From Parcubacteria group bacterium (GTDB lineage: Bacteria; Patescibacteriota; Minisyncoccia; Moranbacterales; UBA11712), in the NCBI GenBank assembly GCA_041659065.1, contig JBAZYY010000001.1, positions 1 through 58,846 on the forward strand: 58,846 nucleotides of DNA. The letters run 5' to 3'. The notes below the pieces were generated by a model. That model saw nothing but the letters and a program-made list of their open reading frames with translations, searched no databases and was not told where the DNA came from. The position numbers and the translations under genes are program-made. The first letter of the stretch is position 1, and every line of letters starts with the position of its first letter. Below are positions 2,820 through 45,705 of the stretch, piece by piece.

Positions 2820-5800
2820 TTAAGCAAACTTAACATCTACTTCTTTGAGCACGCCCTGGAGCTCACGAGCGACATTCTTGTCATAATCGATGCAAAAGGG
2901 CGTTTCCAACCTACTTGCGGAGCCTGATAAATTTCTTTTAATCTCAAGGAAGACCTTGTAATTTCCTTTCTGGGCCTTATTCAGCACGGCCGAAATTTTT
3001 CTCAATAATCCGGAATCCGTGTGGTTCGGCAGGCTGATAAAAACTTTGCGGATATTTTTTTCTCTTTCCTCTTCAATCTGTCTTTGTTTTTCCAAGTTTT
3101 GATATCTTTCGATTTCGTCTTGGTTTACGATCCGAACTTCGTCGCAAATCAACTTAAGCTCGCCGTCTTTGTTTGAAACTTTTCCCGTTGCCAGGATAAT
3201 ATTGCCTTCCTCCCAAAGCGCCGCGTATTTTTCGAGTGTTTTGGGAAAAACTATCACCTCGATTCTTTTTCCACTTGCGTCTTCAACTCCCACAAAGCAC
3301 ATCGTTTTCTGGCTTTTCAGAAATATTTTTTTGATAGTTTCGATTATCCCGCCAATAGTAATTGATTGGTTGATATGGCTTTCGTCAATTTGCGCCACTG
3401 TTATCGAAAATCGCTTGAAAAAATCGAGATATTCCGCCAAAGGATGGTCGGTAATGTAGAGACCTAGGAGTTCCTTTTCCCAATTCAAGCGCTGGCGTTT
3501 GGCGGCCGACTCGGCTGGCGCCAGCGTTATTTCCGGAAGATGCAGCGTGTCTCCCGAGGATCCGAAAAGGCTGATTTGATTGGAGCACTGTATTTTTTGG
3601 AAATCTTTGGAATAATTCAAAATATTCTCGACATTTTCGAGCAGTTGGTTTCGTTCTCCCAGATCATCCATAGCTCCGCATTTAATCAGGCTTTCCAATG
3701 ATTTTTTATTGAAATCCTTGGTCTGGATTCTTTCTATGAAGTCGGTTAAGTTTTTATATTTGCCGTTCTTTTTTCTTTCTTCGACAATTATATTAGCGAC
3801 GTTCTTGCCGACGTTTTTGATGGCTCCCAGTCCGAAACGAATTTTCTCGGGTTCTCCCAGCCGGCAAATAGCGGCAAAAGTTACAAAACTTTCGTTGATG
3901 TTTGGGGGCATGACTTCGATATTCATGGCCCGGCTCTCTTCAACTTCAATAGCAATGCGGTCAATATTCTGCTGATCGGAAGTCAAAAGAGCAGCCATGA
4001 ACTCAGTGGGAAAATGAGCCTTGAGATAAGCGGTTTGGTAGCCGATCATTGCGTAGCAAGCCGCATGCGACCGGTTGAATCCGTATCCCGCGAAAGGCTC
4101 GATAAATGCGAAAACTTTTTCGGCTATTTTCCGATCAATTCCGTTTTTAACGCATCCGTCAATAAACTTAATTTTTTCCTCACGAATAAGTTCCGGGATT
4201 TTTTTCCCCATGGCTTTACGCAAGATATCCGCTTCGGAAAGGGAAAAGCCGGCGAGTGCTTGGGATATCTGCATGACTTGCTCCTGATAAACTGCGACGC
4301 CATAAGTGTTTTTCAAAATTAACTCAAGCTTTGGATGGATGTAAACTATTTTTTTTCGGCCATGTTTTCGGGAGATGAAGTCCGGAATCCAATCCATCGG
4401 ACCCGGGCGATAGAGAGCGACCATAGCGATGATATCTTCGAAGGTTGTCGGCTTGAGTTGTTTCAGGTATCTTTTCATGCCGCCGGATTCCAGCTGGAAC
4501 ACTCCAGTCGTATCCGCCCGCTGCAAAAGCTCGAAAGTTTTTGCTTCGTCGAGCGGGATATCATCAATATTGATTTCAACTTTCTTGGTCTTTCGGATGA
4601 TGTTTAACGTGTCCTGAATGATGGTCAAGTTTTTCAGGCCCAGGAAATCCATCTTAAGGAGACCTATTTTTTCGACATAACTTGATTTAGTCGAAGATGA
4701 GTATTGCGTCACTACGTTTTCCGTGTCACCGGACACATATTGGAGCGGGGAATAATTAACTACCGGCTCCGGGGTGATCACGACTCCGCAAGCGTGCATG
4801 GAAGCGTGACGGGCTACTCCTTCCAAGCGCGCGGCGCTGTCAAGCAGCTTTTTAGCGGCCGGATCGGTACCATAAAGGCTTCGCAGCTCGGACACGCCGT
4901 CAAGTGCGTCGCGGATGGGTATTTGCATAGGAATCATCTTCGCCACCTGGTCACAAAAGCTGTAGGGATATCCTAGCGCGCGGCCGGCGTCTCGAACGGC
5001 GGCTCTGGCCGCCATTGTTCCAAAGGTGATGATTTGAGCAACATGATCTGACCCATATTTTTGTCTTACATAAGCTAAAACTTCATCCCGACGGGTATCG
5101 GCAAAATCAAGATCAATATCCGGCATTGATATGCGATCCGGATTGAGAAAACGTTCAAAAAGGAGATTGTATTTAATCGGATCTATATTCGTTATGTTGG
5201 TTAGGTAGGCAATGATACTACCGGCTGCGCTTCCGCGGCCAGGACCGACAACGATACCTTGTTCTTTCGCCCAATTGACAAAATCCGACACGATTAAAAA
5301 ATACGACGCAAAGCCGGTTTTTTTAATGACCGCGAGCTCAAATTCCATCCGATCGCGGTGTTCTTGGCTCAGGGATTCGCCATAGCGGTTCACAAGCCCT
5401 TTCTCACAAAGTTCGTGCAGAAACGTATCAGGCGTGTAGGTATCCGGAACATTGAAGTAGGGGAGTTTGGTTTTTCCAAGTTCTATTTCCAGATTACACA
5501 TTTCGGCGATACGAGCGGTATTTTCTATCGCTTCAGGGATGTGCCCGAAAGATTCGAAAATTTCGGCGTGATCCCGCATATGCAAGTTGAAATCGAGAAG
5601 ATTGAGACGGTTGGACTCGGTCACCTTCCGGTTTGTTTGGACGCAAAGCAAGATATCCTGTATCGGTGCGTCATCAAGATTGACGTAATGCAGATCGGTA
5701 GTTGCGACCAGCGGCAGACCGGTTTTTTTGGAAAGCGCTATCAGTCCGTCGGTCGCGATTTTTTGCTGGTTGTATTTGGGATGGTCTTGGATCTCGAGGA

Positions 5801-6469: not shown

Positions 6470-7090
6470 CTAGTCATCCAAGTCTGAATAGTCATCATCA
6501 TTCAGGATATCTATAGTTTGAGTTTTTGTGATAGTGTTTTTCTTGCGGCTCCATTTGCCTTTAACTAAGACACGGTCGTCCTCTTTGAGGTCGGCTAGTT
6601 TTATTTTTTTTCCATTCTCATTTTTTATTTTAGTCGAGCTGAGGATTGAAACCGCTTGGTCATCCCGGTCTATGGTGTTAATTTTGAGAGTGCTGGTTGT
6701 TGCGTTGGTCGAGTCTATTGTTCCGTAGAAAGTTACGGTTTTTTTGTCATAATAGCTCAAATCTCTGATTTTAGTGGCGGTCACTTTTTTACCGTCAAAT
6801 GAGCCTTCGACCGTTATTACATCACCCTCTTTTATAGTGGAAAATTTCATACTGTTGCTGCTGGTAGCGCCTTTTCTATATTTTGCGGAAGAGGCATAAA
6901 TCGTGTAAGTATCACCTTCTTTGATAGCCTTAATGACCTTCGTATCCTTATTAATGTCCTTAATGATAGCCTTCTTTAATATTTTAGTCTTGGCTTCCAC
7001 TGCTTTTATCCCTGCACTAAAGGCGCAGAAGCTGATTGTGAGAAAGAGAATCCCGAGGAGAATATTTCTTTTTGTATTCATTTTTTCCAA
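6470..7090 (-). CDS. Secreted or anchored hypothetical protein with repeated beta-rich modules (DUF5666-like, tentative)
   Basis: 206 aa with an N-terminal hydrophobic signal (ILLGILFLTISFCAFSAG), a recurring KEGD-x-(I/V)-x-V-x-G pattern and an acidic C-terminus. Confidence 0.7.
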   Translation of the reverse strand: MEKMNTKRNILLGILFLTISFCAFSAGIKAVEAKTKILKKAIIKDINKDTKVIKAIKEGDTYTIYASSAKYRKGATSSNSMKFSTIKEGDVITVEGSFDGKKVTATKIRDLSYYDKKTVTFYGTIDSTNATTSTLKINTIDRDDQAVSILSSTKIKNENGKKIKLADLKEDDRVLVKGKWSRKKNTITKTQTIDILNDDDYSDLDD

Positions 7091-7142: not shown

Positions 7143-7796
7143 ATGATCTATCCACATTTCGATTTGGAAAATGAGTGTTGGCAAAAAGGTTATAAGCGCG
7201 TAGCGGGAATCGATGAGGCCGGAAGAGGCCCTTTGGCCGGGCCGGTGGTCGCCGCGGCTGTTTTGGTTGAGCCAAGCCAGATGGAGTCCATCAAAGGGCA
7301 AAAAGAGCACAAGCTTGTTCGCGACTCTAAAACTTTGTCGGCGAAGCAACGGGAACGCGCGTTTGATTTTATCACGAGCAATTTTTCTTTTGGTATCGGA
7401 TGGTCAAGCGAAATCACGATTGATAGGATTAATATCCTGCAGGCAACCTATCTGGCTATGAAAAAAGCACTTTCGGACGCCAGAAGCAAGCTTAAGGAGG
7501 AGCCGGACTTCATCTTGATTGATGGCCGAGCTCCATTGCCGAATATCTCCATAAAGCAGAAATATGTAGTGAGAGGGGATAGTATCGTATTCTCGATTGC
7601 GGCTGCATCCGTTTTGGCAAAAGTTTCGCGGGACCGGCAAATGCTTCGCTATCATGCAGAATTTCCGGATTACGGCTTTGATAGACATAAGGGCTATGGG
7701 ACAAAAGCGCATTTTGAAATGCTGAAGGAATTTGGTCCCTGCAAAATTCATAGGAAATCATTTAACTTGGGATTAAGGACGAATCATTCTCGTTGA
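7143..7796 (+). CDS. rnhB: Ribonuclease HII
   Basis: AGIDEAGRGPLAGPVVAAAV catalytic motif and DSK. The ATG at 7143 is preferred over the upstream GTG at 7101 given by the ORF track. Confidence 0.92.
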   Translation: MIYPHFDLENECWQKGYKRVAGIDEAGRGPLAGPVVAAAVLVEPSQMESIKGQKEHKLVRDSKTLSAKQRERAFDFITSNFSFGIGWSSEITIDRINILQATYLAMKKALSDARSKLKEEPDFILIDGRAPLPNISIKQKYVVRGDSIVFSIAAASVLAKVSRDRQMLRYHAEFPDYGFDRHKGYGTKAHFEMLKEFGPCKIHRKSFNLGLRTNHSR

Positions 7797-7848
7797 AATT
7801 ATCAAAACTTTTTTGCAATCAAGCGAAAAGTGCAATTTTCGGAAAGTC

Positions 7849-7877
7849 TTGTCAAACGTCACATTTTAAGCTATTAT
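7849..7877 (+). promoter_or_regulatory. Candidate promoter of rpmF
   Basis: TTGTCA (7849-7854), a 17-nt spacer, then TATTAT (7872-7877), 35 nt before the ATG. Confidence 0.4.
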
Positions 7878-7911
7878 CAGCCTTAGTGATTAATTATATT
7901 AAATAACTGCT

Positions 7912-8142
7912 ATGTCAGTACCAAAACAGCGTCATACAAAGGGGAGGCGGGATAGAAAACGAGCCAGGTTCAAGATTGTCACCAAAGAACTTGTGGCATG
8001 TTCGCATTGCAAAAAAATGATCAAGCAGCATGAGGCTTGTCCAAATTGCGGATATTACAAAGGCAAGGCAGCCATTAAATTGGCTGACAAAAAGGTGAAA
8101 GGAAAAGCCAAGAAAAAAGAACAGGAAAAGCCGAAGAAGTAA
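7912..8142 (+). CDS. rpmF: 50S ribosomal protein L32 with a Lys-rich C-terminal tail
   Basis: MSVPKQRHTKGRRDRKRA N-terminus and a CxxC...CxxC zinc ribbon, both typical of bL32. Confidence 0.92.
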   Translation: MSVPKQRHTKGRRDRKRARFKIVTKELVACSHCKKMIKQHEACPNCGYYKGKAAIKLADKKVKGKAKKKEQEKPKK

Positions 8143-10937: not shown

Positions 10938-11000
10938 CTGCGTTATTTGAGCTTAAAGATAAAAAATAGATAGAATCATAAAAAATATTTAATGTAAATG

Positions 11001-11024
11001 CTACCATCATTGGTAGGATGGTAG
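11001..11024 (+). repeat. 24-nt three-hexamer motif, copy 1 (CTACCATCATTGGTAGGATGGTAG)
   Basis: Layout is CTACCA-N4-TGGTAG-N2-TGGTAG. It lies 39 nt upstream of the TrpR-like gene and 64 nt after the GT-C stop. Confidence 0.9.
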
Positions 11025-11062
11025 TATATGCCAAAAATTAAATTATTTTTTACATAGAATCA

Positions 11063-11593
11063 ATGAATAATAAAGAGGGTATACCGAAAGATGAGGTTTC
11101 AAAACTATTTTATAAACTCTGTGTTGCAATAGCGGAGATGAAAAACCCGCAGGAATCAGCAGAGCTTTTGCGTGATTTACTCTCCTATTCCGAATCCAAG
11201 ATGATAGCTAAAAGACTAAAGATCGCAGAGTTGATTTTGATCGGGAAAACCTATGAGGAAATAAGAGAAAAGCTAAAAGTTGGTTATGGAAAAATTGCAC
11301 GAGTTCAGGAATGGCTAAATATCTCAGGCGGGGGATATCGAAAAGCGGTTAATAGATCAAAAGAAAAAGACTATCCTCATGAGAATAATTCATCTGGAGA
11401 CTCGGAGGGTTGGAGAATGTTAAAAAAGAAATACCCAATGTATTATTGGCCGGAAATGCTTTTGGAAGAAATGATAAGAAATTCCGGTAAAAAACAAAAA
11501 GAAAAAATAATGAGAGCGATGGGGGAAATGGAGAAAGCGAAACAAAAAACGGAACTTTTTCTCAAAATCAATAGGTTGCTTACTAGAAAATAG
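11063..11593 (+). CDS. TrpR-related YerC/YecD family DNA-binding protein with a K/E-rich C-terminal extension
   Basis: The LFYKLCVAIAEMKNPQESAELLRDLLSYSESKMIAKRLKIAELILIGKTYEEIREKLKVGYGKIARVQEWL stretch is collinear with YerC-type Trp-repressor-fold proteins. Confidence 0.82.
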   Translation: MNNKEGIPKDEVSKLFYKLCVAIAEMKNPQESAELLRDLLSYSESKMIAKRLKIAELILIGKTYEEIREKLKVGYGKIARVQEWLNISGGGYRKAVNRSKEKDYPHENNSSGDSEGWRMLKKKYPMYYWPEMLLEEMIRNSGKKQKEKIMRAMGEMEKAKQKTELFLKINRLLTRK

Positions 11594-11601
11594 CGGAAAT
11601 G

Positions 11602-11625
11602 CTACCACGCTACCAAGGATGGTAG
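11602..11625 (-). repeat. 24-nt motif, copy 2, inverted orientation (CTACCACGCTACCAAGGATGGTAG)
   Basis: The reverse complement, CTACCATCCTTGGTAGCGTGGTAG, matches copies 1 and 4 except in spacer bases. It starts 9 nt after the TrpR-like stop. Confidence 0.9.
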
Positions 11626-11731
11626 TAATTGCAAAATTAGAGTATAGGATGGGGTGTGGATAAGTGGTGGTGGCGGGAGCGAAATTTGTTATATATAATA
11701 GGAATATTAAGACTTAGGGAGGTGGGTAGAA

Positions 11732-11947: not shown

Positions 11948-12226
11948 ATGTTTTTTGGACCAAATCCAGAATTAGAAATTAATATAAACATTGTTATCAT
12001 AGTCACACTGTTTGTCATATCCGTTATTTTATTCGCATTTTCTAAAAAATTCTTAGTTTCAGTGCTATTTTTTTCACTTCTCGAAAATATTGTTATGGTT
12101 TTTAATATGTATACTAGATCCTTTCTGTTTATAAACGCTAGCTTTTTATTAATATATTTTGTGCTTCTTCTTTGGCCCCTGTTTAATATTGCTTTAATTT
12201 ATAAATTAATAACACGCAGAAAATGA
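11948..12226 (+). CDS. Small hydrophobic membrane protein
   Basis: 92 aa with about 3 TM helices. Its stop overlaps the next start (ATGA), which suggests translational coupling. Confidence 0.6.
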   Translation: MFFGPNPELEININIVIIVTLFVISVILFAFSKKFLVSVLFFSLLENIVMVFNMYTRSFLFINASFLLIYFVLLLWPLFNIALIYKLITRRK

Positions 12227-15129
12227 AAAAAACAAAAAGAGTTTTCATCGGAATATTGATTTTTGCATTTGTCATAGCTCCGATTAAGCCAAGCGGGCTG
12301 ATAAATTATCTTTCCAGTAGGGCCATCGCGCAAGACAACGAGATAACGGAGGGTGAAACGTTTTGGAATGAAGACATCACTGTCACAGGTGATTTTTTTG
12401 TAGGTCCGGATGCGTTTCTCACGATAAAAAAAGGAGTAACTGTGACTCTTGATAACTCTAATTTTATAGTCGAAGGCGGACTTTTCGTTGAAGGTACGGT
12501 GAAAGATCCTGTGAAATTTAAGAAGGCTAATGAAAATAGTGTATATTTCCTCACAATAAGAGATGGTGCTTGGGCAGAATTTAAAAATTTTGACATAAGC
12601 GAAGCTGGCTATTTTGATGACGGTGGAATCCCCCCTGTTCAGGTTAGGAATTCAACTGTTAGCCGAGCTTATGCCGAGGAGCTGATTCCAGCAATTCAGA
12701 TTGACGAATCCTCTTTTCTTTGCGACGCTTGCGCTTTTCATTCCAATGCTGCCGGAATTTCTCTAAAAAATTTGAAATTCTATTCGGAAATTAAAGTAAA
12801 TCGCTCTAAATTTTTTGATAATGAAAAATACGATGTGAATTATGATAACAGCAAAGATTTATCTAGCTTGCTTGATTTTCAGCATAACTGGTGGGGGAGT
12901 AGGTCTGGTCCGGAAAAAACAGCTGGAAATATTAATACTTCAAATTTTACGGTCAAAGAAGATTTTCGTGACCCCGTTATTGTTATCCCTGGGATTATGG
13001 GTTCTTGGAAGGTCGGTGATAAATGGGAGCTAGATCCCATAACTCATTCATATGACAATTTAATTTTCGAGCTTGATAACGAGGGTTATACTCCAGGCTA
13101 TGATCTTTTTGAATTTCCGTACCAATGGCGAAACAGCAACGTAGAAAACGCTGAATATCTGGGAAATTATATAGACGCTATCGAAACCCAAAAAAGTTGG
13201 CCGAAAGTTGACATTGTGGCGCATTCAATGGGCGGACTTCTAGCGCGACAGTACATCGAATCCTTTGAAAATGAATATGAGATTGATGTTGACCAGCTAA
13301 TTACCCTTGGAACACCACATAACGGTTCCTTAGTTGCATATCTGATGCGGGAAGCAGGGGAGGGTTTTTCAGGTATTGATGGTTATGCAGCAAAAAAAAT
13401 ATTTACTCGTGAGGCTGAAAAGGCAAGCGAAGAGAATCTATTCTACTATATCCGTAATCGGCCGATGTCATCGGTCCAAGAATTATTACCTACAAATAAT
13501 TATCTGTTTAACTTGGATTCTAATTCGCCAAAAATATATCCAACTGGCTATCCGCGAAATGAATTTCTGGAAAAATTAAATAGCGAAGACGGGATGATAA
13601 AATTGAACATGGTCGAATTCGACAATATTTATGGAGAATATTCAGGAGAAAAAACTCTAGGAGGGTTTAAAACTATCAATGCGCCAGCTTTCGGCGATTA
13701 TTGGGAGCATGGCTATCCCAAAAATTACAATTTTCTTGGAAGCAAAGAAGGACTTGTCTATGTTGAAGGAGACGGAACTGTGCCGAAAGATTCGGCAATT
13801 TCCGTGCCGAGCGATGAAAGGAGGGGCGTCCCGTCTTCTCATAATAAATTACCAACCGAGGCTCAAAAAGATGTACTTGAATATTTGACAGGCATAAGGC
13901 CTGCTAACGAAATCAGGGATGCCGGAATGGATATACGAGAGATATTGCTGATTCAGGTTTATTGCCCTATTGATATTCAAGTGACCGATCCGAATGGAAA
14001 TATCAGTGGAACAAATTTTGCGAATGGATCTTCTATTAATAATATCGAGGGGGCCGCTTATATAAAAAATGGCGACAACGAAGAATTTATCACGATTCCA
14101 AATCCGGTTAAAGATGAGCAGTATATAATCAAAACCAAGGGGACGGGTGAGGGTGGAGACTATAAGATTGAAGTCGCGAAAATAACTGAGAATAATTCAA
14201 ATCCAGATCAAACCGAAGAACCGCCCGTGATAATCGAAGGAAATATTCAGTCCGGTGATTTTGACGAAACGGCGATAAAAATAGAAAATGATGAGATCTT
14301 AATTTCTGACCAGCCAGCGGACACCACGCCTCCCACCATTATCGGGTATGCGACAACTCAGCCGAATGCGAGTGGTTGGTATAATACCGATGTGGTTGTG
14401 CGGTTTGAGGCGGCGGACAGCGAATCGGGAATCGAGAGTGTGACGCCGGATGTTGTAATTTCCACGGAAGGAGCGAATCAATCTGTCACTGGCACGGCGA
14501 TTGATAAGGCGGGAAACAGCGCGACGTATGCGGTATCGGGCATAAATATCGATAAAGCTCCTCCCGCAATCTCAATTACTTCCCCGAAACCCATAAAATA
14601 TCAAAATAATCAAATTCTGCCGATAAATCTTCAAGTGGCGGACAATTTCAGCTCGCGGGATAAAATAGCAAGCGCTGCCGTCTATGACAAGGCGGATTTT
14701 CCAAAAAATAACATCGATCTGTCTCTTGAGCGTCTCGGGCCTCACAATCTAAAAATCACGGCCGGAGACGAAGCGGGAAATAATTCCGAGACAAAAGTTG
14801 ATTTTTTTGTCGTGACGAATCTTGACGCGATCAGGAGTAATGTTGCGCATTACTGGAATCTCAAATTAATCAAGAGGAAAGTTGAGAAAAGTTATCTTGA
14901 AATGCAGATAAAAATTCTCAAGGAGCAATTCGGAGTTTTGGAGCGGACAAAATCAATGCGAATAAACCCGAGAATCAAGGAATTATTCATCCAATCCCAA
15001 AAGCAACTGATTAATTTCAGAATCAAAGCGCTCGTCAATCAGCTGAGACATAATTCTCCGCGCTGGATCGAAGAAAAAGCAGCCGCAGCCTTGATAGAGA
15101 GTTTGAATTCGATAAGAATACTCCAATAG
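12223..15129 (+). CDS. Secreted multidomain lipase/esterase-like protein (beta-helix-like N-terminal region, alpha/beta-hydrolase, Ig-like C-terminal domains)
   Basis: Signal peptide. PGAP1/LCAT-like strings VIVIPGIMGSW and VAHSMGGLLARQY (GxSxG) followed by GTPHNGS. A C-terminal DTTPPT...GWYNTDVVV...DSESGI Ig-like module. Confidence 0.8.
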   Translation: MKKTKRVFIGILIFAFVIAPIKPSGLINYLSSRAIAQDNEITEGETFWNEDITVTGDFFVGPDAFLTIKKGVTVTLDNSNFIVEGGLFVEGTVKDPVKFKKANENSVYFLTIRDGAWAEFKNFDISEAGYFDDGGIPPVQVRNSTVSRAYAEELIPAIQIDESSFLCDACAFHSNAAGISLKNLKFYSEIKVNRSKFFDNEKYDVNYDNSKDLSSLLDFQHNWWGSRSGPEKTAGNINTSNFTVKEDFRDPVIVIPGIMGSWKVGDKWELDPITHSYDNLIFELDNEGYTPGYDLFEFPYQWRNSNVENAEYLGNYIDAIETQKSWPKVDIVAHSMGGLLARQYIESFENEYEIDVDQLITLGTPHNGSLVAYLMREAGEGFSGIDGYAAKKIFTREAEKASEENLFYYIRNRPMSSVQELLPTNNYLFNLDSNSPKIYPTGYPRNEFLEKLNSEDGMIKLNMVEFDNIYGEYSGEKTLGGFKTINAPAFGDYWEHGYPKNYNFLGSKEGLVYVEGDGTVPKDSAISVPSDERRGVPSSHNKLPTEAQKDVLEYLTGIRPANEIRDAGMDIREILLIQVYCPIDIQVTDPNGNISGTNFANGSSINNIEGAAYIKNGDNEEFITIPNPVKDEQYIIKTKGTGEGGDYKIEVAKITENNSNPDQTEEPPVIIEGNIQSGDFDETAIKIENDEILISDQPADTTPPTIIGYATTQPNASGWYNTDVVVRFEAADSESGIESVTPDVVISTEGANQSVTGTAIDKAGNSATYAVSGINIDKAPPAISITSPKPIKYQNNQILPINLQVADNFSSRDKIASAAVYDKADFPKNNIDLSLERLGPHNLKITAGDEAGNNSETKVDFFVVTNLDAIRSNVAHYWNLKLIKRKVEKSYLEMQIKILKEQFGVLERTKSMRINPRIKELFIQSQKQLINFRIKALVNQLRHNSPRWIEEKAAAALIESLNSIRILQ

Positions 15130-15144
15130 TAAAAAATGCACATA

Positions 15145-15168
15145 CTACCACGCTACCAATGATGGTAG
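15145..15168 (-). repeat. 24-nt motif, copy 3, inverted orientation (CTACCACGCTACCAATGATGGTAG)
   Basis: Its reverse complement matches copy 1 at 22/24 positions. It starts 16 nt after the lipase-like gene stop. Confidence 0.9.
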
Positions 15169-15319
15169 GATATGCATGTTTTAAAAAAGTAAAGAGGGCG
15201 GGAAGGGAGAAGCGCTGGTCTGGCTCAGAAGCACCAATTAAAGGAACGCTCCCTGCCTGGGGCAGGGAGCAAAGGGCCAAATATGGCAATTTTAAAATAT
15301 TGGCTAAAGATCTGGCGGT

Positions 15320-21634: not shown

Positions 21635-22675
21635 ATGCAAGACTCACGAAAAACCTCAGTTGTTATAACCTGTCACAATTACGGAAAATTTTTGAAAGAG
21701 GCAATTGACTCAGCGCTAAATCAATCAGTCAAACCAAAAGAAGTAATAGTTGTGAATGACGCAAGCGCAGATGATTCGGAAAAAATCGCGAAAAGCTATA
21801 GGGATAAGATAAAGTATTTTCAAGTCGAGTTTAAAAATGCACAGAAGGCTAGGAACCTTGGGCTACAAAAAAGTTCCGGAGAGTTCGTTGTTTTTCTTGA
21901 TGCAGATGACTATTTCGACAATAATTTTCTAAAATATACTCAAGTGGAATTAGAGGGAGACAAAGAATTAGATCTGGTATACACCGATAGATCACATATT
22001 GGGGAAAAGAAATTCCTGGAAGATTTAGGATTTAAGTCATGCTGGAAAACGGAAGAATTCGACTATGATAAATTGACTCAATATAATTATATCTCTCTCC
22101 CGTCGCTAATACGAAAGAAAAAATTTAAAGGATTCGATGAGGAAATTAAAAGATTCCAAGACTGGGATGCATGGCTAACGCTATTAAAAAACGGCGAGGC
22201 AAAAAGAATTGCGGAATCATTATTTACCGTTAGGTTTCACGGGGAAAATAAAACCTTTACGGTTGATAGCATCCTTGAAAGGATAAAGGTGCTGGCAAAA
22301 CATAAGCTTTATGATATTTTAGCTAATGATTATAGGAAAGTTGTCTTGGAATTAGGTGATTTGCGCAAAACTATCCAGCAGAAAGATCAGGAAATCCAGC
22401 AAAAAGACCAAGAGCTTCAGCAGAAAGATCAGGAAATCCAGCAAAAAGACCAAGAGCTTCAGCAGAAAGATCAGGAAATCCAGCAAAAAGACCAAGAGCT
22501 TCAGCAGAAAGATCAGGAAATCCAGCAGGAAAGAAATGTTATCGCAGTAAGAGAAAGTATTATTCGACAAAAAAACGCCGAAATAAAAATGATGAAATCT
22601 TCGAGATTTTGGAAAATGAGAGAAGTATACTATCGAATAAACAGCAAGATAGCACGGAAAAAGAAGCATGGATAA
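21635..22675 (+). CDS. GT2 glycosyltransferase with a C-terminal repeat-built coiled coil
   Basis: SVVITCHNYGKFL ... VNDASADDS ... FLDADD (DxD). The C-terminus has (QQKDQEIQQKDQEL)n followed by an SSRFWKMR motif. Confidence 0.88.
   Translation: MQDSRKTSVVITCHNYGKFLKEAIDSALNQSVKPKEVIVVNDASADDSEKIAKSYRDKIKYFQVEFKNAQKARNLGLQKSSGEFVVFLDADDYFDNNFLKYTQVELEGDKELDLVYTDRSHIGEKKFLEDLGFKSCWKTEEFDYDKLTQYNYISLPSLIRKKKFKGFDEEIKRFQDWDAWLTLLKNGEAKRIAESLFTVRFHGENKTFTVDSILERIKVLAKHKLYDILANDYRKVVLELGDLRKTIQQKDQEIQQKDQELQQKDQEIQQKDQELQQKDQEIQQKDQELQQKDQEIQQERNVIAVRESIIRQKNAEIKMMKSSRFWKMREVYYRINSKIARKKKHG
22376..22527 (+). repeat. Perfect 42-bp tandem repeat, about 3.6 copies, in frame within the GT2 gene
   Basis: The unit CAGCAGAAAGATCAGGAAATCCAGCAAAAAGACCAAGAGCTT occurs at 22376-22417, 22418-22459 and 22460-22501, plus 26 nt of a fourth copy. 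Confidence 0.95.
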
Positions 22676-40066: not shown

Positions 40067-42199
40067 ATGAGCGCGGTTTCACAATACTTATATAAATTCT
40101 ATCAGGTGCGCGTAAAAAAATATATTCCTCGCTCTTTTTTCAGGGCGATGAACAGTGTTTTTGGTTCGCTGAATTGGCAGCAGCACAAGTTCATCGGCGC
40201 AAGGCGAAAAAGCATCAGGGGGCGCTATCTTTTTGACTTAAAAAAAATCGAGAATTTGGAATTTTCAAATATTCAGGAGATTAAATTCGAAAAACAAGAT
40301 GCTCCCGAAATTTCCATAATAATTCCGGCGTTCAATAAGTGGAGGTTCACCTATAATTGTCTGTCTTCGATCAGAAAAAATGCGCGTGGAGCGGCGTACG
40401 AAATAATCATTGTGGACAATGCTTCGACTGACGAAACCTCGGACCTCTTTCGAGATAAGATTAAAAACGTAAAATATCTGAGGCAGGAGGAAAATCTTAA
40501 TTTTGTGGGAGGCAACAACGAAGGACTGAAACAGGCTAGTGGAAAATATATAGCTTTCTTGAACAACGATACCTTCGTGTTTCCCGGATGGCTTGAAAAC
40601 CTGAAAGCCGTTTTAGACAGGGACGAAAAGATTGGCCTGGTGGGATCCAAGCTGATTTATCCCGATGGGGCGCTTCAGGAAGCGGGCGGAATTGTTTGGA
40701 AAAATGGGAATGCCTGGAATTACGGGCACTGCGAAGATCCCAATGATTTCGAGTTCAATTACGTGAAAGACGTTGATTATTGCTCGGCGGCTTCGATAAT
40801 GGTCCGAGCGGAGTTGCTCCAACAGTTGGGCGGTTTTGACGCGCTGTATCAACCGGCCTATTTCGAGGATACGGATCTGGCGTTCAGGGTGAGACAATCG
40901 GGTTTCAGGACGGTTTATCAGCCCGCATCAGAGGTTATTCATTTTGAGGGCGTGACTGCCGGGAAAAACGCCAAAGAGGGATTCAAAAAATATCAGGAAA
41001 AAAACAAACATAAGTTTTTTGGGCGCTGGAAGGAGGTTTTACTGGGTGAGAATCCTGAAGAGGGAAAAGAGAATGCTTATCTGGCCAGAGACCGCTCCCA
41101 GTTGAAAAAAATTCTGCTATTCGTGGATAATGAAGTTCCCAGCTATGACAAGGATGCCGGATCTTATATTGTTCTTGAATATCTGAAAATATTTATCGAC
41201 TTAGGCTATAAAATTGTTTTCTGGCCGCATAGCTTGAGCAAAAATGAACCCTATGTTTCGAATTTGCAGCAAATGGGCATCGAAGTTGTCTATGGCGGAG
41301 AAAACTTTTCAAGTTATATCAAAAGATATGGAAAGCACTTGGATTTGGCCGTCCTGTCGCGCCCTAATATAGCCGAAAATTATCTTAATAAAATTAGAAA
41401 AAATTCGAGGGCAAAAATATTATATTTGGCGCATGATCTGCACTTCCTGAGAGAGATGAGAGAAAGCCAAATCGGAAATAAGAATGGGCTGCAGGAAAAA
41501 TATTCCGGAACTCGCGAAAGAGAAATTGATATAATGAAAAAAAGCGACCTGTCACTTGTCTTCAGCGGCGAGGAAGAAAAAATTATCAGAAAAGATTATC
41601 CAGAAATTAAGATTGAAACAATTCCCTGGATTGAAAAGGTGGATGAAAGAATAGTCAAAAAAGATTTTAGGGAAAGAACGGGCCTGTTATTTCTAGGGGG
41701 ATTTGGTCATCCGCCGAATGTCGACGCGGTCAAATGGCTTCAGGATGAAATACTTCCAATGCTGAAACAGAAAATACCCGGCATTTTTGCCACGGTCGTA
41801 GGCAGCAAATCGCCCAAAGAAATTTTGGCTTTGAATTCGGAAGATTTTAGGATTGCCGGCTTTGTTGAAGACGAAGATTTAACGAAATATTTCGCGCGTC
41901 ACCGGGTTTTCATCAGTCCGCTGCGTTTCGGCGCGGGGTTCAAAGGAAAGATTGCCAGATCCATGGCATGTGGCCTCCCAGTCGTGACTACTTCCCTAGG
42001 CGCGGAGGGAATGGGCCTTACGGACGGGGAAACCGCGTTAATTGCGGACACTGCGGAAGGGCTGGTGGAAAAGATAAGTAATCTATATAAAAACGAAGCT
42101 TTGTGGAACGCTATTTCAAAAAATTCTCTTGAGTACATAAAAAATAACTGTTCCGTAGAGAATGCCAAGAAAGTGATGAGTAAAATTCTAGCGGAGTGA
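40067..42199 (+). CDS. Bifunctional glycosyltransferase (N-terminal GT2, C-terminal GT4)
   Basis: ISIIIPAFN ... IIVDNASTDET in the N-terminal half and FGAGFKGKIARSMACGLPVVTT in the C-terminal half. Confidence 0.87.
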   Translation: MSAVSQYLYKFYQVRVKKYIPRSFFRAMNSVFGSLNWQQHKFIGARRKSIRGRYLFDLKKIENLEFSNIQEIKFEKQDAPEISIIIPAFNKWRFTYNCLSSIRKNARGAAYEIIIVDNASTDETSDLFRDKIKNVKYLRQEENLNFVGGNNEGLKQASGKYIAFLNNDTFVFPGWLENLKAVLDRDEKIGLVGSKLIYPDGALQEAGGIVWKNGNAWNYGHCEDPNDFEFNYVKDVDYCSAASIMVRAELLQQLGGFDALYQPAYFEDTDLAFRVRQSGFRTVYQPASEVIHFEGVTAGKNAKEGFKKYQEKNKHKFFGRWKEVLLGENPEEGKENAYLARDRSQLKKILLFVDNEVPSYDKDAGSYIVLEYLKIFIDLGYKIVFWPHSLSKNEPYVSNLQQMGIEVVYGGENFSSYIKRYGKHLDLAVLSRPNIAENYLNKIRKNSRAKILYLAHDLHFLREMRESQIGNKNGLQEKYSGTREREIDIMKKSDLSLVFSGEEEKIIRKDYPEIKIETIPWIEKVDERIVKKDFRERTGLLFLGGFGHPPNVDAVKWLQDEILPMLKQKIPGIFATVVGSKSPKEILALNSEDFRIAGFVEDEDLTKYFARHRVFISPLRFGAGFKGKIARSMACGLPVVTTSLGAEGMGLTDGETALIADTAEGLVEKISNLYKNEALWNAISKNSLEYIKNNCSVENAKKVMSKILAE

Positions 42200-42289
42200 G
42201 GATTTTTAAGCGTCAAAAAACAATAAAAAAACCGGCACTTGGTCGGAAATCTACTTGAGTTTCAACAGGCTAGGCAAATTTTTTTTCCA
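42164..42289 (+). repeat. Direct repeat A (3' end of the GT gene, terminator region and a relic of the 3' end of a convergent gene)
   Basis: Ungapped alignment with 44185-44310 gives 106/126 identical positions by hand count. Confidence 0.9.
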
Positions 42290-42520
42290 GTTTTTTGCAA
42301 TATTTCAGCCAAACCTTAAATTTGGCTATTTCCTATGAATTGTTTGAGATGTACCTTAAACAATCGGAAGAGCCAAAAGCGGGTTTTTCTTGAATTTGGG
42401 CATTTTTCGGACTATTCGAAGATTACTCTTCTATAATATCCCATTTTCTGATAAAATTCAATTGTCGGACGGTTCGTTCGGACATATTTGACAAGATGCA
42501 GGCTTCTGGTATCATATAGA

Positions 42521-42564
42521 TGCGTTTCCGTGCATTATAATATTTTATAAAATAAAGAAACGCA
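42521..42564 (+). promoter_or_regulatory. Candidate AbiEi operator: an inverted repeat bracketing a TATAAT box
   Basis: TGCGTTTC (42521-42528) and GAAACGCA (42557-42564) flank ...GCATTATAATATTTTATAAAATAAA..., 24 nt upstream of the ATG. Confidence 0.4.
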
Positions 42565-42587
42565 AATTATCGAACTAAGCCTTATAT

Positions 42588-43208
42588 ATGCATTTTTTCG
42601 ACTTTGAGAAAAAAATGGTTGATTATCCTGTTTTTACCGTTCAAGAGGTGAAAAATATATTTTTTGACGAAACAAATTTGTCCGTTCAAACTTCACAGTG
42701 GGTCAAAAAAGGCTATCTTGAGAGAATCAAAAAAGGCTTGTATATTCTTTCGAATCGCAAAAAAGAAATCAATCCGATGGTTTTGGCGGAAAAAATTTAT
42801 TCGCCTTCCTATTTGAGCCTTGAATTCGCACTGAACCACTATGGAATCATTCCGGATATTCCCGGGACATACACATCCGTGAGTTCGCGAAAAACCATGA
42901 ATTTCAAAACAAACTTTGGCTATTTTTCCTATCAAAAAATCAAGCCGGAATTTTTCATTGGCTATCAACCCCTTATCGAAAAAGATGTTTCTTTTAGCCT
43001 GGCCTATCCGGAAAAGGCGATTTTGGATTTTCTTTATCTCAACAAACGCCGATTGAAAGCTGATCCGGCTTTTTGGAATGAAATGAGAATCGATGAGGAC
43101 TTCAGGTTTGACAAAAAACAAATTGAATTCTATAAGAGAATTTTCCGGGACAAGAAAGTGGATATTTTGATTGACAGTTTATTGGAATATCAAAAAAATG
43201 CTCGATAA
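42588..43208 (+). CDS. AbiEi family antitoxin-like transcriptional regulator
   Basis: N-terminal FTVQEVKNIF...WVKKGYLERIKKGLYIL winged-helix pattern typical of the AbiEi_4 domain, located upstream of an AbiEii gene. Confidence 0.83.
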   Translation: MHFFDFEKKMVDYPVFTVQEVKNIFFDETNLSVQTSQWVKKGYLERIKKGLYILSNRKKEINPMVLAEKIYSPSYLSLEFALNHYGIIPDIPGTYTSVSSRKTMNFKTNFGYFSYQKIKPEFFIGYQPLIEKDVSFSLAYPEKAILDFLYLNKRRLKADPAFWNEMRIDEDFRFDKKQIEFYKRIFRDKKVDILIDSLLEYQKNAR

Positions 43209-44004
43209 AAATTTTTTGGAAGATTACAACAAAAGAAACGCGATTCCGGTGAATCCGCGCCGCAATTTGACCGAATATCTGCAATCGGAAATTCTGGCTG
43301 CGCTATACGAATCGAAATATGGCCGCCATTTTTCGTTTATGGGAGGGACATGCTTGCGTTTCGTGCACAAAATAGACCGGTTCTCGGAAGATTTGGATTT
43401 TGATTTGATTTTGAAACAAGGAAATCCGGATATCAAGGGTGTGGCGGATTATATCGAGAAAAAACTCAAAGAGTTGGGGTTCGCGGCGGAAACGCGCCTC
43501 AAGGAACGGCAAAATATTTTCGTTATTTATGTAAAATTTTCTTCGGTGATGAAGGAAATGGGCTTGAGCGGCATGGCCGGTCAGAAGTTGACAGTGAAAT
43601 TCGAAGTTGATCCAAATCCGCCGAAAAAAATTGAAATTGAATCAAAAGAAATTTCAGCTTACGGAAAGACTTTCAATCTTGCTTGCAACGCGCTAGAGAC
43701 TCTTTTCGCGCAAAAAATTATCGCGGCGTCTTTCAGGCCATTCCAGAAGGGGAGAGATTTTTATGACCTCGTCTGGTTTTTACTGCAAAAAGATCTGGAG
43801 CCGAATTATGATCTTTTGCTTGAAAAGAAAATCAAGGCGCAAAATCGCGAACAACTGGTTCAAGTTTTGAAAAAAACAATCGCCAAGGCAAATCTCCCCG
43901 AAGCTGTCGCAGATGTTGAGAGATTTCTTTTTCGAAAAGAAAAAGCCAAGTGGATTTTGAATTTGCCGAAATATCTCGATGATTACGCGAAAGCAGGGAA
44001 ATAG
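43198..44004 (+). CDS. AbiEii/AbiGii family nucleotidyltransferase toxin (DUF1814)
   Basis: FMGGTCLRFVHKIDRFSEDLDFD motif. The ATG at 43198 overlaps the antitoxin stop by 11 nt. Confidence 0.86.
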   Translation: MLDKNFLEDYNKRNAIPVNPRRNLTEYLQSEILAALYESKYGRHFSFMGGTCLRFVHKIDRFSEDLDFDLILKQGNPDIKGVADYIEKKLKELGFAAETRLKERQNIFVIYVKFSSVMKEMGLSGMAGQKLTVKFEVDPNPPKKIEIESKEISAYGKTFNLACNALETLFAQKIIAASFRPFQKGRDFYDLVWFLLQKDLEPNYDLLLEKKIKAQNREQLVQVLKKTIAKANLPEAVADVERFLFRKEKAKWILNLPKYLDDYAKAGK

Positions 44005-44184
44005 GCGAAATTATAAAACTAAAAAGCCTGCAACGCAAAGCGGTTCTCTGATATAAATTTGCTTCCGTTTTACACCCAACTCCGATAATGTGTCAAGATT
44101 TTTCTACTTCGGTAGAAAAAGACAGATTTGGACAAAAGAGTCAAATGAATACCGCCGGCTCGTCTAGGCGGTTCAGCTGGGAAC

Positions 44185-44310
44185 GCCAAGAAAGTGATGA
44201 GCGAAATTTTAGCAGAGTGAGGATTCTAAAGGGATAAAAAACAACAAAAAAACCGGCGCTTGGCCGGAAATCGGAGTGAGTTTCGATAGGTTAGGCGAAT
44301 TTTTTTTCCA
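44185..44310 (+). repeat. Direct repeat B (relic of the GT gene 3' end, terminator region and the true 3' end of the 82-aa gene)
   Basis: Contains a non-functional copy of ...AKKVMSEILAE-stop, versus AKKVMSKILAE-stop at the real GT gene end. Confidence 0.9.
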
Positions 44311-44539
44311 CTTTCTCAACGCGATACTTAAGATCATTGTGGGTGAATATATCAACCTTTTTATTCAGTTCAGCTTTTATATATTCCGTATCCGACTTTA
44401 CTCCTTTGACATCGGTTTCGATCTTTTTAAATCTTCCCTCCATGTCTAAAAAACCTTCCTGAACAATTCTTGCCAAGTCGTCCATTGTCACCTCTTCTTT
44501 CTTCTCACTATTTTTTTCTTCCATCTTTTTTAGTTTCAA
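44291..44539 (-). CDS. Hypothetical coiled-coil protein
   Basis: 82-aa ORF with a TTG start. An alternative ATG at 44524 would give MEEKNSEKK.... No family recognised. Confidence 0.5.
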   Translation of the reverse strand: MKLKKMEEKNSEKKEEVTMDDLARIVQEGFLDMEGRFKKIETDVKGVKSDTEYIKAELNKKVDIFTHNDLKYRVEKVEKKFA

Positions 44540-44705
44540 CTTTTATCAGCTTGTTATCCTTGAGCATTTTAATTAGGGGCTTACTGCAAGCAAAACAAAT
44601 CTCATAAGAAGCGAACGTCATAATGTTGCCGTTGCGTGTCAGGTGAAAACGTTCCGAGCTCGAGGCTATTGTCTTTTTGCAAATATCGCATTTGGTAATT
44701 GTCAT
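44508..44705 (-). CDS. Hypothetical zinc-ribbon protein
   Basis: 65 aa with CDICKK ... CFACSK (CxxC...CxxC). Confidence 0.5.
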   Translation of the reverse strand: MTITKCDICKKTIASSSERFHLTRNGNIMTFASYEICFACSKPLIKMLKDNKLIKVETKKDGRKK

Positions 44706-44736
44706 AATCGAATTATACTGTTTGGCTTTTGTAGTG

Positions 44737-45705
44737 TCAATTTTTTTGCTCCCACGCCCAAGCGTCGCGGATAATATCTTTGAGGCTATATTTTGCTTTC
44801 CAACCTAAAATTTTTCTAATTTTTTGGCTGCTGGCAACCAGAACCGGCGGATCTCCCGGCCGGCGATCAGTTTCTTCAACTTTGAAATCAATCCCGGTGA
44901 TTTCTTGGCATTTCGCGATCACTTCTTTCACGGAATATCCATTCTCGCTGCCTAAATTGAACCTTTCGGATTTGTTTTCTTTTTCAAGGTAATCGAGCGC
45001 CAGGATGTGGGCATCAATCAAATCTTCCACATGGATATAGTCCCGGACGCAGGTGCCGTCGGGGGTTGGATAATCGGTGCCATATATTTGGATGCCCTCA
45101 CGCGTGCCTTTGGCGGCTTTGAGCGCCAGGGGGATGAGGTGGGTTTCCGGATTATGCATTTCCCCGAAATTGCCTTCCGGATCGGCGCCAGCCGCATTAA
45201 AATAGCGCAGGCAAATCGATTTCAGACCATAAGCATGGTCATAGGCGTCCAGAATGTTTTCAATCGCGAGCTTAGATACTCCATAGGGATTAGTCGGATT
45301 CTTTGGGTCGTTTTCTTCAATGGGAACTTTTTCCGGCTCGCCAAAAATGGCGGCGGTTGAGCTGAAAATAAACTTTTTCACGCCGCTTGCCAGCATAGCC
45401 CGGAAAAGACCAAGGCTTCCGGAAATATTATTTGTGAAATATTTCTGCGGATTTTCGACTGATTCGCCGACCAAAGAATAGGCTGCGAAATGCATTACAA
45501 CGTCGATTTCATTACTTTTGAAAACTGTTTCGAGGTCTCGGGGATTCAGTAAGTCGCCCTTTATGAATTCGGCGTTTTTATTGATTAGTCTTTCAAATCC
45601 GGTGGAAAGATTGTCAAAAATAACCACCTCGTGATTGTTCGCCAATAAGTTTTTTACCGCAATGGAACCTATGTATCCCGCGCCACCGACAACTAAAATT
45701 TTCAT
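44737..45705 (-). CDS. galE: UDP-glucose 4-epimerase family protein
   Basis: VVGGAGYIGS and YGVSK. At 322 aa it is collinear with GalE. Confidence 0.9.
   Translation of the reverse strand: MKILVVGGAGYIGSIAVKNLLANNHEVVIFDNLSTGFERLINKNAEFIKGDLLNPRDLETVFKSNEIDVVMHFAAYSLVGESVENPQKYFTNNISGSLGLFRAMLASGVKKFIFSSTAAIFGEPEKVPIEENDPKNPTNPYGVSKLAIENILDAYDHAYGLKSICLRYFNAAGADPEGNFGEMHNPETHLIPLALKAAKGTREGIQIYGTDYPTPDGTCVRDYIHVEDLIDAHILALDYLEKENKSERFNLGSENGYSVKEVIAKCQEITGIDFKVEETDRRPGDPPVLVASSQKIRKILGWKAKYSLKDIIRDAWAWEQKN

Follow-up and report, generated by a model that had tools for sequence, protein, structure and literature searches.

An AbiE toxin-antitoxin cassette bracketed by a diverged duplication of a convergent gene junction in a Parcubacteria polysaccharide region

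The AbiE locus and its bracketing repeats

This report concerns an AbiEi/AbiEii gene pair and the two diverged direct repeats that bracket it in a 58.8-kb stretch of DNA from a Parcubacteria group bacterium (contig JBAZYY010000001.1; the whole stretch is called the window below). The window is a chromosomal cell-surface polysaccharide region, with genes for DnaE, RNase HII, a Wzm/Wzt transporter, many glycosyltransferases (GT), sugar epimerases and an aminotransferase, and the source runs holding its sequence are groundwater metagenomes. The locus (Table 1) comprises a plus-strand bifunctional GT gene, an insert of 1877 nucleotides (nt; 42294-44170) with the AbiE pair, and a convergent minus-strand operon encoding proteins of 65 and 82 amino acids (aa). 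Each repeat copy contains a GT stop region, a hairpin and an 82-aa gene stop region. The last ~16 codons of the bifunctional GT gene lie within the left copy (J_L), and the 3' end of the functional 82-aa gene (44291-44314) lies within the right copy (J_R). Because the junction is duplicated, the GT gene retains its stop codon in the left copy and the 82-aa operon retains its stop codon and terminator in the right copy.

The original prediction, made from the sequence of the locus, had aligned 42164-42289 with 44185-44310 at 106 of 126 positions without gaps, and a recount gives exactly this figure. The best ungapped segment is somewhat longer (42160-42293 against 44181-44314, 112 matches in 134), and a repeat finder extends the pair to 42150-42293 and 44171-44314, that is, to 144 nt with 118/144 matches (82%) at an offset of 2021 (blastn E = 1e-37). 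By segment, 32/36 positions agree in the 12 codons of the GT end, 56/70 between the genes and 21/24 at the end of the 82-aa gene, and no uninterrupted stretch of matches exceeds 17 nt. A repeat search of the window returned this pair as the sole long dispersed direct repeat of its kind, and the junction repeat is present in two copies in the window and in none of 99 fetched loci.

The translations of the gene ends are as had been proposed: the GT gene ends in AKKVMSKILAE before the stop and its relic in AKKVMSEILAE, while the corresponding 82-aa gene ends read LKYRVEKVEKKFA in the functional gene and WLKYCKKLEKKFA in the relic, each followed by a stop. Two details of the proposal require amendment. 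A hairpin had been described in each copy; it is intact in the right copy, but that of the left copy (CCGGC..GTCGG) is degenerate and no terminator is called there. The 82-aa relic had been read over 42270-42311, which holds as far as 42293; the residues beyond (LKYC) belong to module S, a sequence that is found elsewhere without an 82-aa gene end.

Judged by sequence, the two genes of the insert are a genuine AbiEi/AbiEii pair of the type IV toxin-antitoxin (TA)/abortive-infection kind. AbiEii matches its family with 89.7 bits against a Pfam PF08843 cut-off of 22.5 and carries the nucleotidyltransferase (NTase) motif GG-x14-DLD at residues 49-67, and AbiEi is encoded directly upstream in one operon, the two genes overlapping by 11 nt in the order abiEi-abiEii. 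The pair resembles known AbiE systems in the overlap, in the strong profile matches, in its Pol-beta-type NTase motif and in the inverted repeat that closely follows the promoter. The difference is that the AbiEi match is strong only in PADLOC: both curated profiles score below their cut-offs (NCBIfam TAA_AbiEi 6e-12, Pfam AbiEi_4 0.0015).

AbiEi proteins autoregulate their operons at inverted repeats in the promoter. The 8-bp inverted repeat of the window, which is conserved in four related loci (L002, L004, L014 and L018), is on this ground a likely AbiEi operator. A relic of a window-type AbiE operator (TTGCGTTTC..GAAACGC plus a start codon) lies at 5229-5300 of locus L064, directly upstream of an AbiE cassette of a second type, which suggests that one cassette took the place of another there. 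At the other end of the pair, a 47-nt patch (43990-44036) occupies the last abiEii codons and is absent from L018 and from the X16/X17 contigs. This patch changes the AbiEii C-terminus from ..AVL to ..AGK before the stop and leaves half a terminator hairpin.

The AbiE genes are ordinary, and the feature of the window is an old, drifted insertion scar around them.

Table 1. Features of the AbiE locus (window coordinates)
Feature	Position	Strand	Description
Bifunctional GT gene	40067-42199	+	GT2 + GT1 domains, 710 aa; Pfam PF00535 4e-28, PF13692 3e-24
Left repeat J_L	42150-42293	.	functional GT 3' end (to 42199), degenerate hairpin 42232-42246, 82-aa-family relic
82-aa-family relic in J_L	42270-42293	-	last 7 codons + stop, KLEKKFA; family C-terminal consensus ..EKLEKKFA
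Module S	42289-42379	-	91-nt non-coding 3' trailer with hairpin; boundaries constant in at least 4 flanking contexts
Relic of divergent GT2 gene	42380-42403	-	first 8 codons (MPKFKKNP); from comparison with relatives
Orphan promoter-like site of lost GT2 gene	42433-42461	-	TTGAAT-17-TATTAT; in module 42385-42468, ~90% conserved in relatives
AbiE promoter	42488-42515	+	TTGACA-16-TATCAT, TG-extended
8-bp inverted repeat	42521-42528 / 42557-42564	+	TGCGTTTC/GAAACGCA; downstream of AbiE promoter
abiEi	42588-43208	+	antitoxin/transcriptional regulator, 206 aa; PADLOC AbiEi 6.9e-54, residues 1-200
abiEii	43198-44004	+	nucleotidyltransferase toxin, 268 aa; Pfam PF08843 3.6e-25, PADLOC AbiEii 2.7e-52
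tail1	44005-44051	.	half terminator common to L001/L018; from comparison with relatives
tail2	44052-44138	.	with hairpin 44099-44120; from comparison with relatives
3' relic of minus-strand gene	44139-44170	-	..PAVFI + stop, 32 nt, joined to right repeat; not matched in other loci
Right repeat J_R	44171-44314	.	GT 3' relic, functional minus-strand terminator, functional 82-aa gene 3' end
GT 3'-end relic in J_R	44171-44220	+	translation GSAGNAKKVMSEILAE + stop
Functional terminator in J_R	44253-44267 + T-run	-	intact hairpin CCGGC..GCCGG
65-aa/82-aa operon	44291-44740	-	65-aa (CxxC..CxxC) and 82-aa (coiled-coil) genes; perfect sigma-70 promoter 44740-44712; terminator

The 65-aa/82-aa gene pair is conserved in L002, L016 and L018. 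Members of the 82-aa family vary in the number of internal repeats and share a near-invariant C-terminus (..YRVEKLEKKFA); the family has no match in Pfam, PADLOC or NCBIfam. Two further repeat structures were observed in the window. A 50-nt element with a CTACCA..TGGTAG dyad is present in three copies (10983-11032, 11584-11633 and 15127-15176; 64-78% identical) that bracket a Trp-repressor-like gene (11063-11593) and the gene of a 968-aa LCAT-like hydrolase (12223-15129), a second repeat-gene-repeat layout within the window. A 21-nt tandem repeat (22376-22548, six overlapping copies, QQKDQEI-type heptad) lies inside the GT2 gene at 21635-22675.

Composition of the insert and movement among relatives

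The original prediction described the 1.9 kb between the repeats as holding only the AbiE pair with its own promoter. The promoter is there, but so are a 5' relic of a GT2 gene, a divergent promoter, module S, two tail modules and the 3' relic of another gene. These were recognized by comparison with related loci, all of them metagenome contigs and designated L001 and so on; contigs from individual sequencing runs are designated by the run (X1 and so on). An Rfam search over 41800-44800 gave no match at E <= 1, and no tRNA gene was found in the window.

Module S forms the left end of three bracketed inserts (window, L014 and L018). In relatives it follows the 3' end of an RNase_T gene (L014/L015) or of a gene for a 584-aa membrane protein (L001/L003), and it is located downstream of the cassette in L001, L003, X16 and a minor X1 contig. 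The GT2 gene of which the window keeps eight codons is intact beside AbiE in L003, L014, L015 and L002, and the AbiEii proteins of L003, L014 and L015 are 94-96% identical to that of the window. At the other end of the insert, tail2 recurs in L018 as the direct repeat on either side of the AbiE cassette and, in the opposite orientation, as the promoter region of AAA-ATPase genes in L042 (6624-6679) and L080-L082. It carries a minus-strand promoter-like site (TTGACA-18-TAAAAC), which in the window would point antisense into abiEii. The segment 44139-44184 was considered as an RNase_T relic and rejected: it shares a stop-region motif (TCATTTGACTCTTT) with L014 and L001, but its translation is unlike the C-terminus of RNase_T.

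In L003, L001, X16 and the minor X1 contig, the modules run GT2, promoter, AbiE, tail, S; the insert has them circularly permuted, as S, GT2 relic, promoter, AbiE, tail. The end of S (..AAAAACTGGAA) and the end of the 82-aa gene (..GAAAAACTGGAAAAA) have a stretch in common, a microhomology. Read against related loci, this mosaic indicates that the insert is a piece of another chromosome's version of the locus and not an element with fixed ends. A separate rearrangement was observed in L014 (887-1702, equivalent to L015 875-1690), where the divergent GT2/AbiE promoter region has received an RNase_T-family gene together with its S trailer. The insertion is accompanied by a duplication of 32 nt (31/32 identical), and GT2 and RNase_T each appear to retain a promoter copy.

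Sequence comparison shows that the AbiE cassette is clearly mobile between genomes. The window and L004 are syntenic over the gene for the 584-aa membrane protein followed by GT2, GT4, GT1, GT2 and metallophosphatase genes. The six syntenic flanking proteins are 52-79% identical, against 92% for AbiEi and 96% for AbiEii; similarly, AbiEii is 96% identical between the window and L001 where the 584-aa protein is 51% identical. The borders of the cassette differ between relatives. L004 shares with the window only 42518-43991, and its cassette is located between a different GT gene (GT2 + GT9) and a PfkB gene, between 67-nt repeats of its own (~83% identical, one indel) in which the ends of these convergent genes are duplicated. 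L018 is more distant (AbiE 62-66% identical, flanks 47-75%); it has the module order of the window (S-like, GT2 relic, promoter, AbiE) between two tail2 copies, next to an 82-aa-family gene. A rough estimate from 8% nucleotide divergence and 92-96% protein identity puts the distance between the cassettes of the window and of L004 at ~0.3 substitutions per synonymous site. This leaves time enough for the repeats to have drifted by 16%, and the timescale therefore fits both of the principal models discussed below.

Bracketing repeats and cassette arrays at other loci

A metagenome scan gave 80 AbiEii loci, 61 of them with enough flanking sequence for a survey. Relatives of AbiEii bear names from Moranbacteria, Pacebacteria and other Patescibacteria. 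Same-strand direct repeats of 40-177 nt, 78-93% identical and spaced 1585-2021 nt apart, bracket AbiE in 20 of the 61 loci, compared with a match in 9 of 79 control placements (p = 0.002). When only strong cases (E < 1e-10) are counted and duplicate contigs are removed, the figures are 12 of ~54 loci and 2 of 79 shifted control placements (Fisher p = 4e-4). Control placements within the window gave one match in 33. Many of the AbiEii matches lie on 1-3 kb contigs, and the identity distribution of the repeats is biased, since long perfect repeats break assemblies.

The bracketing repeats cover gene 3' ends, terminators or promoters, and their sequences differ from locus to locus, which implies that they derive from the target. 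The bracketed inserts are mostly tight, abiEi being preceded by 57-180 nt of promoter and the abiEii stop codon followed by 2-58 nt. Conservation on the left side ends ~30 nt upstream of the -35 box, and no conserved motif was found at the right end of the cassette. As a separate observation, a DnaA-box-like sequence opens the bracketing repeats at two unrelated AbiE insertions: TGTGGATAA in L064 (5187, 6803) and TGTGCATAA in L040 (5223, 6830).

Several loci contain arrays, in which a locus-specific sequence of 40-240 nt recurs between the cassettes in three or four diverged copies. In L042 (1650-9800), the 3' end of a 310-aa gene is present in four copies with ragged left ends. These are separated by a zeta-toxin-like gene, an AbiE pair, a ParA and AAA-ATPase pair and a second AbiE-like pair. 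Arrays were also found in L057 (4250-8700), L050 (1-3300), L075 (2100-6800) and others, with Fic-like and ATPase cassettes. The youngest event seen is in L054, where a 221-nt direct repeat (6788-7008 and 7739-7959; 98.6% identical) directly follows abiEii. Its two copies enclose a decayed AbiEi-like fragment together with the 5' part of a gene for a 169-aa membrane protein, the relic being located upstream of the functional copy.

Origin of the duplication and its meaning

The closest precedent for the arrangement is insertion with long target duplication, catalogued since 2000 (Nobusato et al. 2000, Gene 259:99) and described for restriction-modification (RM) units without mobility genes, which duplicate 30 to >400 bp of target (Furuta, Abe & Kobayashi 2010, NAR 38:2428, PMC2853133). 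Naturally competent species supply most of the published cases, in which the empty site resembles neither repeat as closely as the repeats resemble each other (PMC2853133). By the criteria of Furuta et al. (2010), the window qualifies in having the whole system inside an insert shorter than 20 kb (1877 nt), a repeat longer than 30 bp (134-144 nt) that is not high-copy, and no linked mobility genes among the 38 large open reading frames (ORFs) of the window. The remaining criterion is alignment of both repeats to one copy at the empty site of a related genome, and the searches described below found no such site. Common to the RM units and the window AbiE are a small "addiction" module without integrase or transposase and target-derived repeats of tens to hundreds of bases, of site-specific length and sequence, that often overlap the 3' ends of neighbouring genes. 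In both, flanking repeats are significantly commoner than for average genes. The differences are that the cargo here is an AbiE pair and the host an uncultivated member of the Patescibacteria, that the repeats are 84% identical instead of typically 95-100%, and that several of the loci studied here form cassette arrays. In full-text literature searches, the pattern was found described for RM, and no description was found for TA or AbiE systems, nor any in Patescibacteria.

We tentatively favour the view that the cassette was captured together with a duplication of its target junction, made by host recombination or repair at the time of uptake. Under this scheme, ~1.9 kb of DNA from a related (Moranbacteria-like) Patescibacteria chromosome, containing the self-promoted AbiEi/AbiEii pair and scraps of its earlier neighbours, would have been captured at the point where the plus-strand GT operon and the minus-strand 65-aa/82-aa operon converge. 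No recombinase encoded by the element would be involved. Either the filling of gaps left by staggered breaks or a template switch at microhomologies as the fragment enters could leave ~144 nt of the junction on each side of the insert, and the non-functional halves would subsequently drift to ~84% identity. We infer this manner and timing of the duplication, with DNA uptake as the route of entry and stabilization of the insert by the addictive TA pair. An argument for such a process is that AbiE cassettes occupy many unrelated sites, each with its own repeat, so that a de novo duplication is needed at least as a seeding step. The minimal mobile elements of Neisseria and homology-facilitated illegitimate recombination during natural transformation provide a partial parallel: cassettes without mobility genes are exchanged at fixed positions after DNA uptake. 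The exchange is host-driven and microhomology joints are expected, of which the S end and the 82-aa gene end have one. The Neisseria events differ in that they are normally replacements or insertion-deletions, not long duplications.

Several observations weigh against duplication at capture. In the coding parts of J_L and J_R, 8 of 13 differences are synonymous (p = 0.046 under a null model in which one copy is constrained, p = 0.003 under pure neutrality; the test is based on just these 13 differences), and within the narrower bounds of the original prediction the figure is 5 of 6 (p ~0.02). Such a bias is better explained by divergence between two functional alleles than by decay after duplication. 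No indel occurs in the 144 nt in spite of 26 substitutions. Searches did not find an empty site, so that duplication of a single-copy target is unproven at this locus. There is also no identical pair among the repeats that bracket AbiE, in a sample biased by the breaking of assemblies at perfect repeats; the absence of identical pairs was for this reason dropped as proof that the repeats were "born diverged". Finally, the molecular mechanism of long target duplication is unexplained even in the published cases.

The alternative that survives best, a serious possibility although we consider it the less probable, is that the junction is allelic. A circle, or a linear fragment anchored on one side, would have come from a related strain and entered by RecA-type recombination in the junction, so that most of the divergence pre-existed. 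The original prediction proposed a variant of this, single-crossover (Campbell-type) integration of a circular molecule, and held the 16% divergence to be compatible with an origin in a related strain. An inserted cassette and the synonymous bias (p ~0.02-0.05) agree with it on both points. Moreover, relic residues agree with the family consensus at positions where the functional copy departs from it: the 82-aa relic carries the consensus KLEKKFA where the functional gene has KVEKKFA, and relic ..SA.N and P0132 ..SAEN stand against SVEN in the functional gene. The permuted module order, with a joint between S and codon 8 of GT2, is the expected product of circularization, and L018 has the same permuted unit between two copies of a tail module. 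Once direct repeats are present, homologous excision and re-integration are in any case to be expected.

The circle itself was not found. The search covered assembled contigs, which drop rare variants, and no single-junction form was met. A high-depth contig of 1825 nt (run X4) and a 222-nt X1 contig seemed to join the end of the cassette to its start and were rejected as circle junctions. L003 is linear without terminal overlap, with S merely placed downstream of AbiE by the 584-aa gene, and L001, the minor X1 contig and X16 likewise proved to be linear alternative arrangements with S downstream of the cassette. Since S occurs in several contexts, deletions can also produce the permutation. 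In the suggested comparison with plasmids and phages, PLSDB and INPHARED had no matching DNA and IMG/VR had no relative.

Neither was the empty site, which the original prediction had suggested looking for in related genomes or minority reads, recovered: in assembled contigs, all runs of the strain carry the cassette. The best GT protein in a scan of genome contigs is 59% identical and has a different downstream gene, and the nearest GT homologue (74% identical) lies on a 3-kb JGI contig. Homologues of the 82-aa protein occur on short contigs or in other contexts only, and exact look-ups of this protein returned the same strain only, with the cassette present.

The allelic model requires a donor that already holds the cassette at the same junction; it explains spread, not origin, and cannot seed many unrelated sites each with its own repeat, including the 221-nt pair at 98.6%. 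In published RM cases the distance between the two repeats is smaller than that of either to the empty site. The L004 repeat lacks the synonymous bias, with one synonymous and four non-synonymous differences plus a frameshift. The three relic copies in L042 have interleaved private differences with no single crossover point; this was counted against the allelic model but is uninformative for a choice between the two. A combined life cycle is quite possible, in which one de novo duplication is followed by excision and re-integration between strains through recombination of the repeats.

It is improbable that the repeats are attL and attR sites on which a site-specific recombinase acted in trans, be it on a cis-mobilizable element, an Xer-dependent module or an integrase-less integron-like array. 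The cassette arrays with repeats between them do look like chromosomal integron arrays or like tandem islands at a single att site, hairpins occur in many of the repeats, and the boundaries of S are constant across contexts, S forming the left end of the inserts in the window, L014 and L018. However, the original prediction recognized no integrase in the window, and profile searches found no integrase, transposase or recombinase domain among its 38 large ORFs. The repeats are locus-specific, the leftmost copy continues into coding sequence at the 3' end of the neighbouring gene (window, L004, L042), and the left ends of relic copies are ragged. The right ends of the cassettes have no motif in common, conservation on the left ceases ~30 nt before the -35 box, and the 17-nt longest identical run of the window pair also speaks against such sites.

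Prophages and islands such as e14 and phage 21 in icd of E. coli, or the tRNA-targeting islands, integrate in a gene 3' end and supply a replacement 3' end. They share with the AbiE loci a duplicated gene 3' end that brackets the insert, a displaced relic, the possibility of mostly synonymous differences, and tandem arrays. In contrast to the AbiE loci, they encode an integrase and use a fixed att core; here no integrase was found in the window, both convergent genes are duplicated and relic borders are ragged. Chromosomal integron arrays and attC clusters also have small, often TA-encoding cassettes and 60-220-nt repeats that are similar within an array. The repeats described here differ in being locus-specific and continuous with the flanking coding end, and neither IntI nor paired attC-type end motifs were found (window; repeat inspected by eye).

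Equally improbable is an old segmental duplication, or a second GT/82-aa region, whose gene bodies were trimmed to relics by deletions, with AbiE merely lying between. The locus is indeed pieced together from gene-end relics, gene replacement is a known mode of evolution in polysaccharide loci, and the identities in L018 suggest that the proximity of AbiE to the 82-aa, 65-aa and 584-aa genes is old. Against this, the cassette is far better conserved than its flanks in L004, hence a recent arrival relative to its neighbours; two independent deletions would be required, each ending just past a stop codon; and equally tight bracketing occurs at a dozen unrelated sites.

That assembly or coverage problems at the repeats created the arrangement, as a proposed refutation had it, has a vanishingly small probability: a 39-kb Logan contig of run X1 is identical with an even depth of ~26-30, contigs from a different study (X2) match 43935-45011 identically including the right-hand junction, a recorded 339-kb contig encodes the same set of proteins, and an assembler cannot collapse or swap copies that differ at 16% of positions. 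A transposon target-site duplication, already discounted in the original prediction, is excluded by length (134-144 nt against under about 15-26 bp), and searches found no transposase domain in the window and no inverted repeat pair at the ends of the insert.

The recurrence of bracketing and the arrays in related loci are of more interest than the feature of the window itself. The window adds an AbiE example to long target duplication and the metagenome loci add more, about one third of related AbiE loci being bracketed, in a lineage with tiny genomes and few classical mobile elements. These loci are a natural set of insertions, including young (98.6%) events, from which junction rules could be read and competing models compared. 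They bear on the question of how defence and TA genes without mobility genes reach chromosomal hotspots. A wider generalization, which we regard as somewhat unlikely, is that the TA and defence cassettes of Patescibacteria (AbiE, Fic-like, zeta-like, AAA-ATPase) move without a recombinase of their own, duplicating 40-230 nt of target each time. Repeated hits would then build integron-like arrays in which the duplicated end of a neighbouring gene serves as the "recombination site", and S and tail2 may be preferred points of breakage or template switching. If true, this would be a general host-driven route for defence-gene traffic in genomes almost without classical mobile elements.

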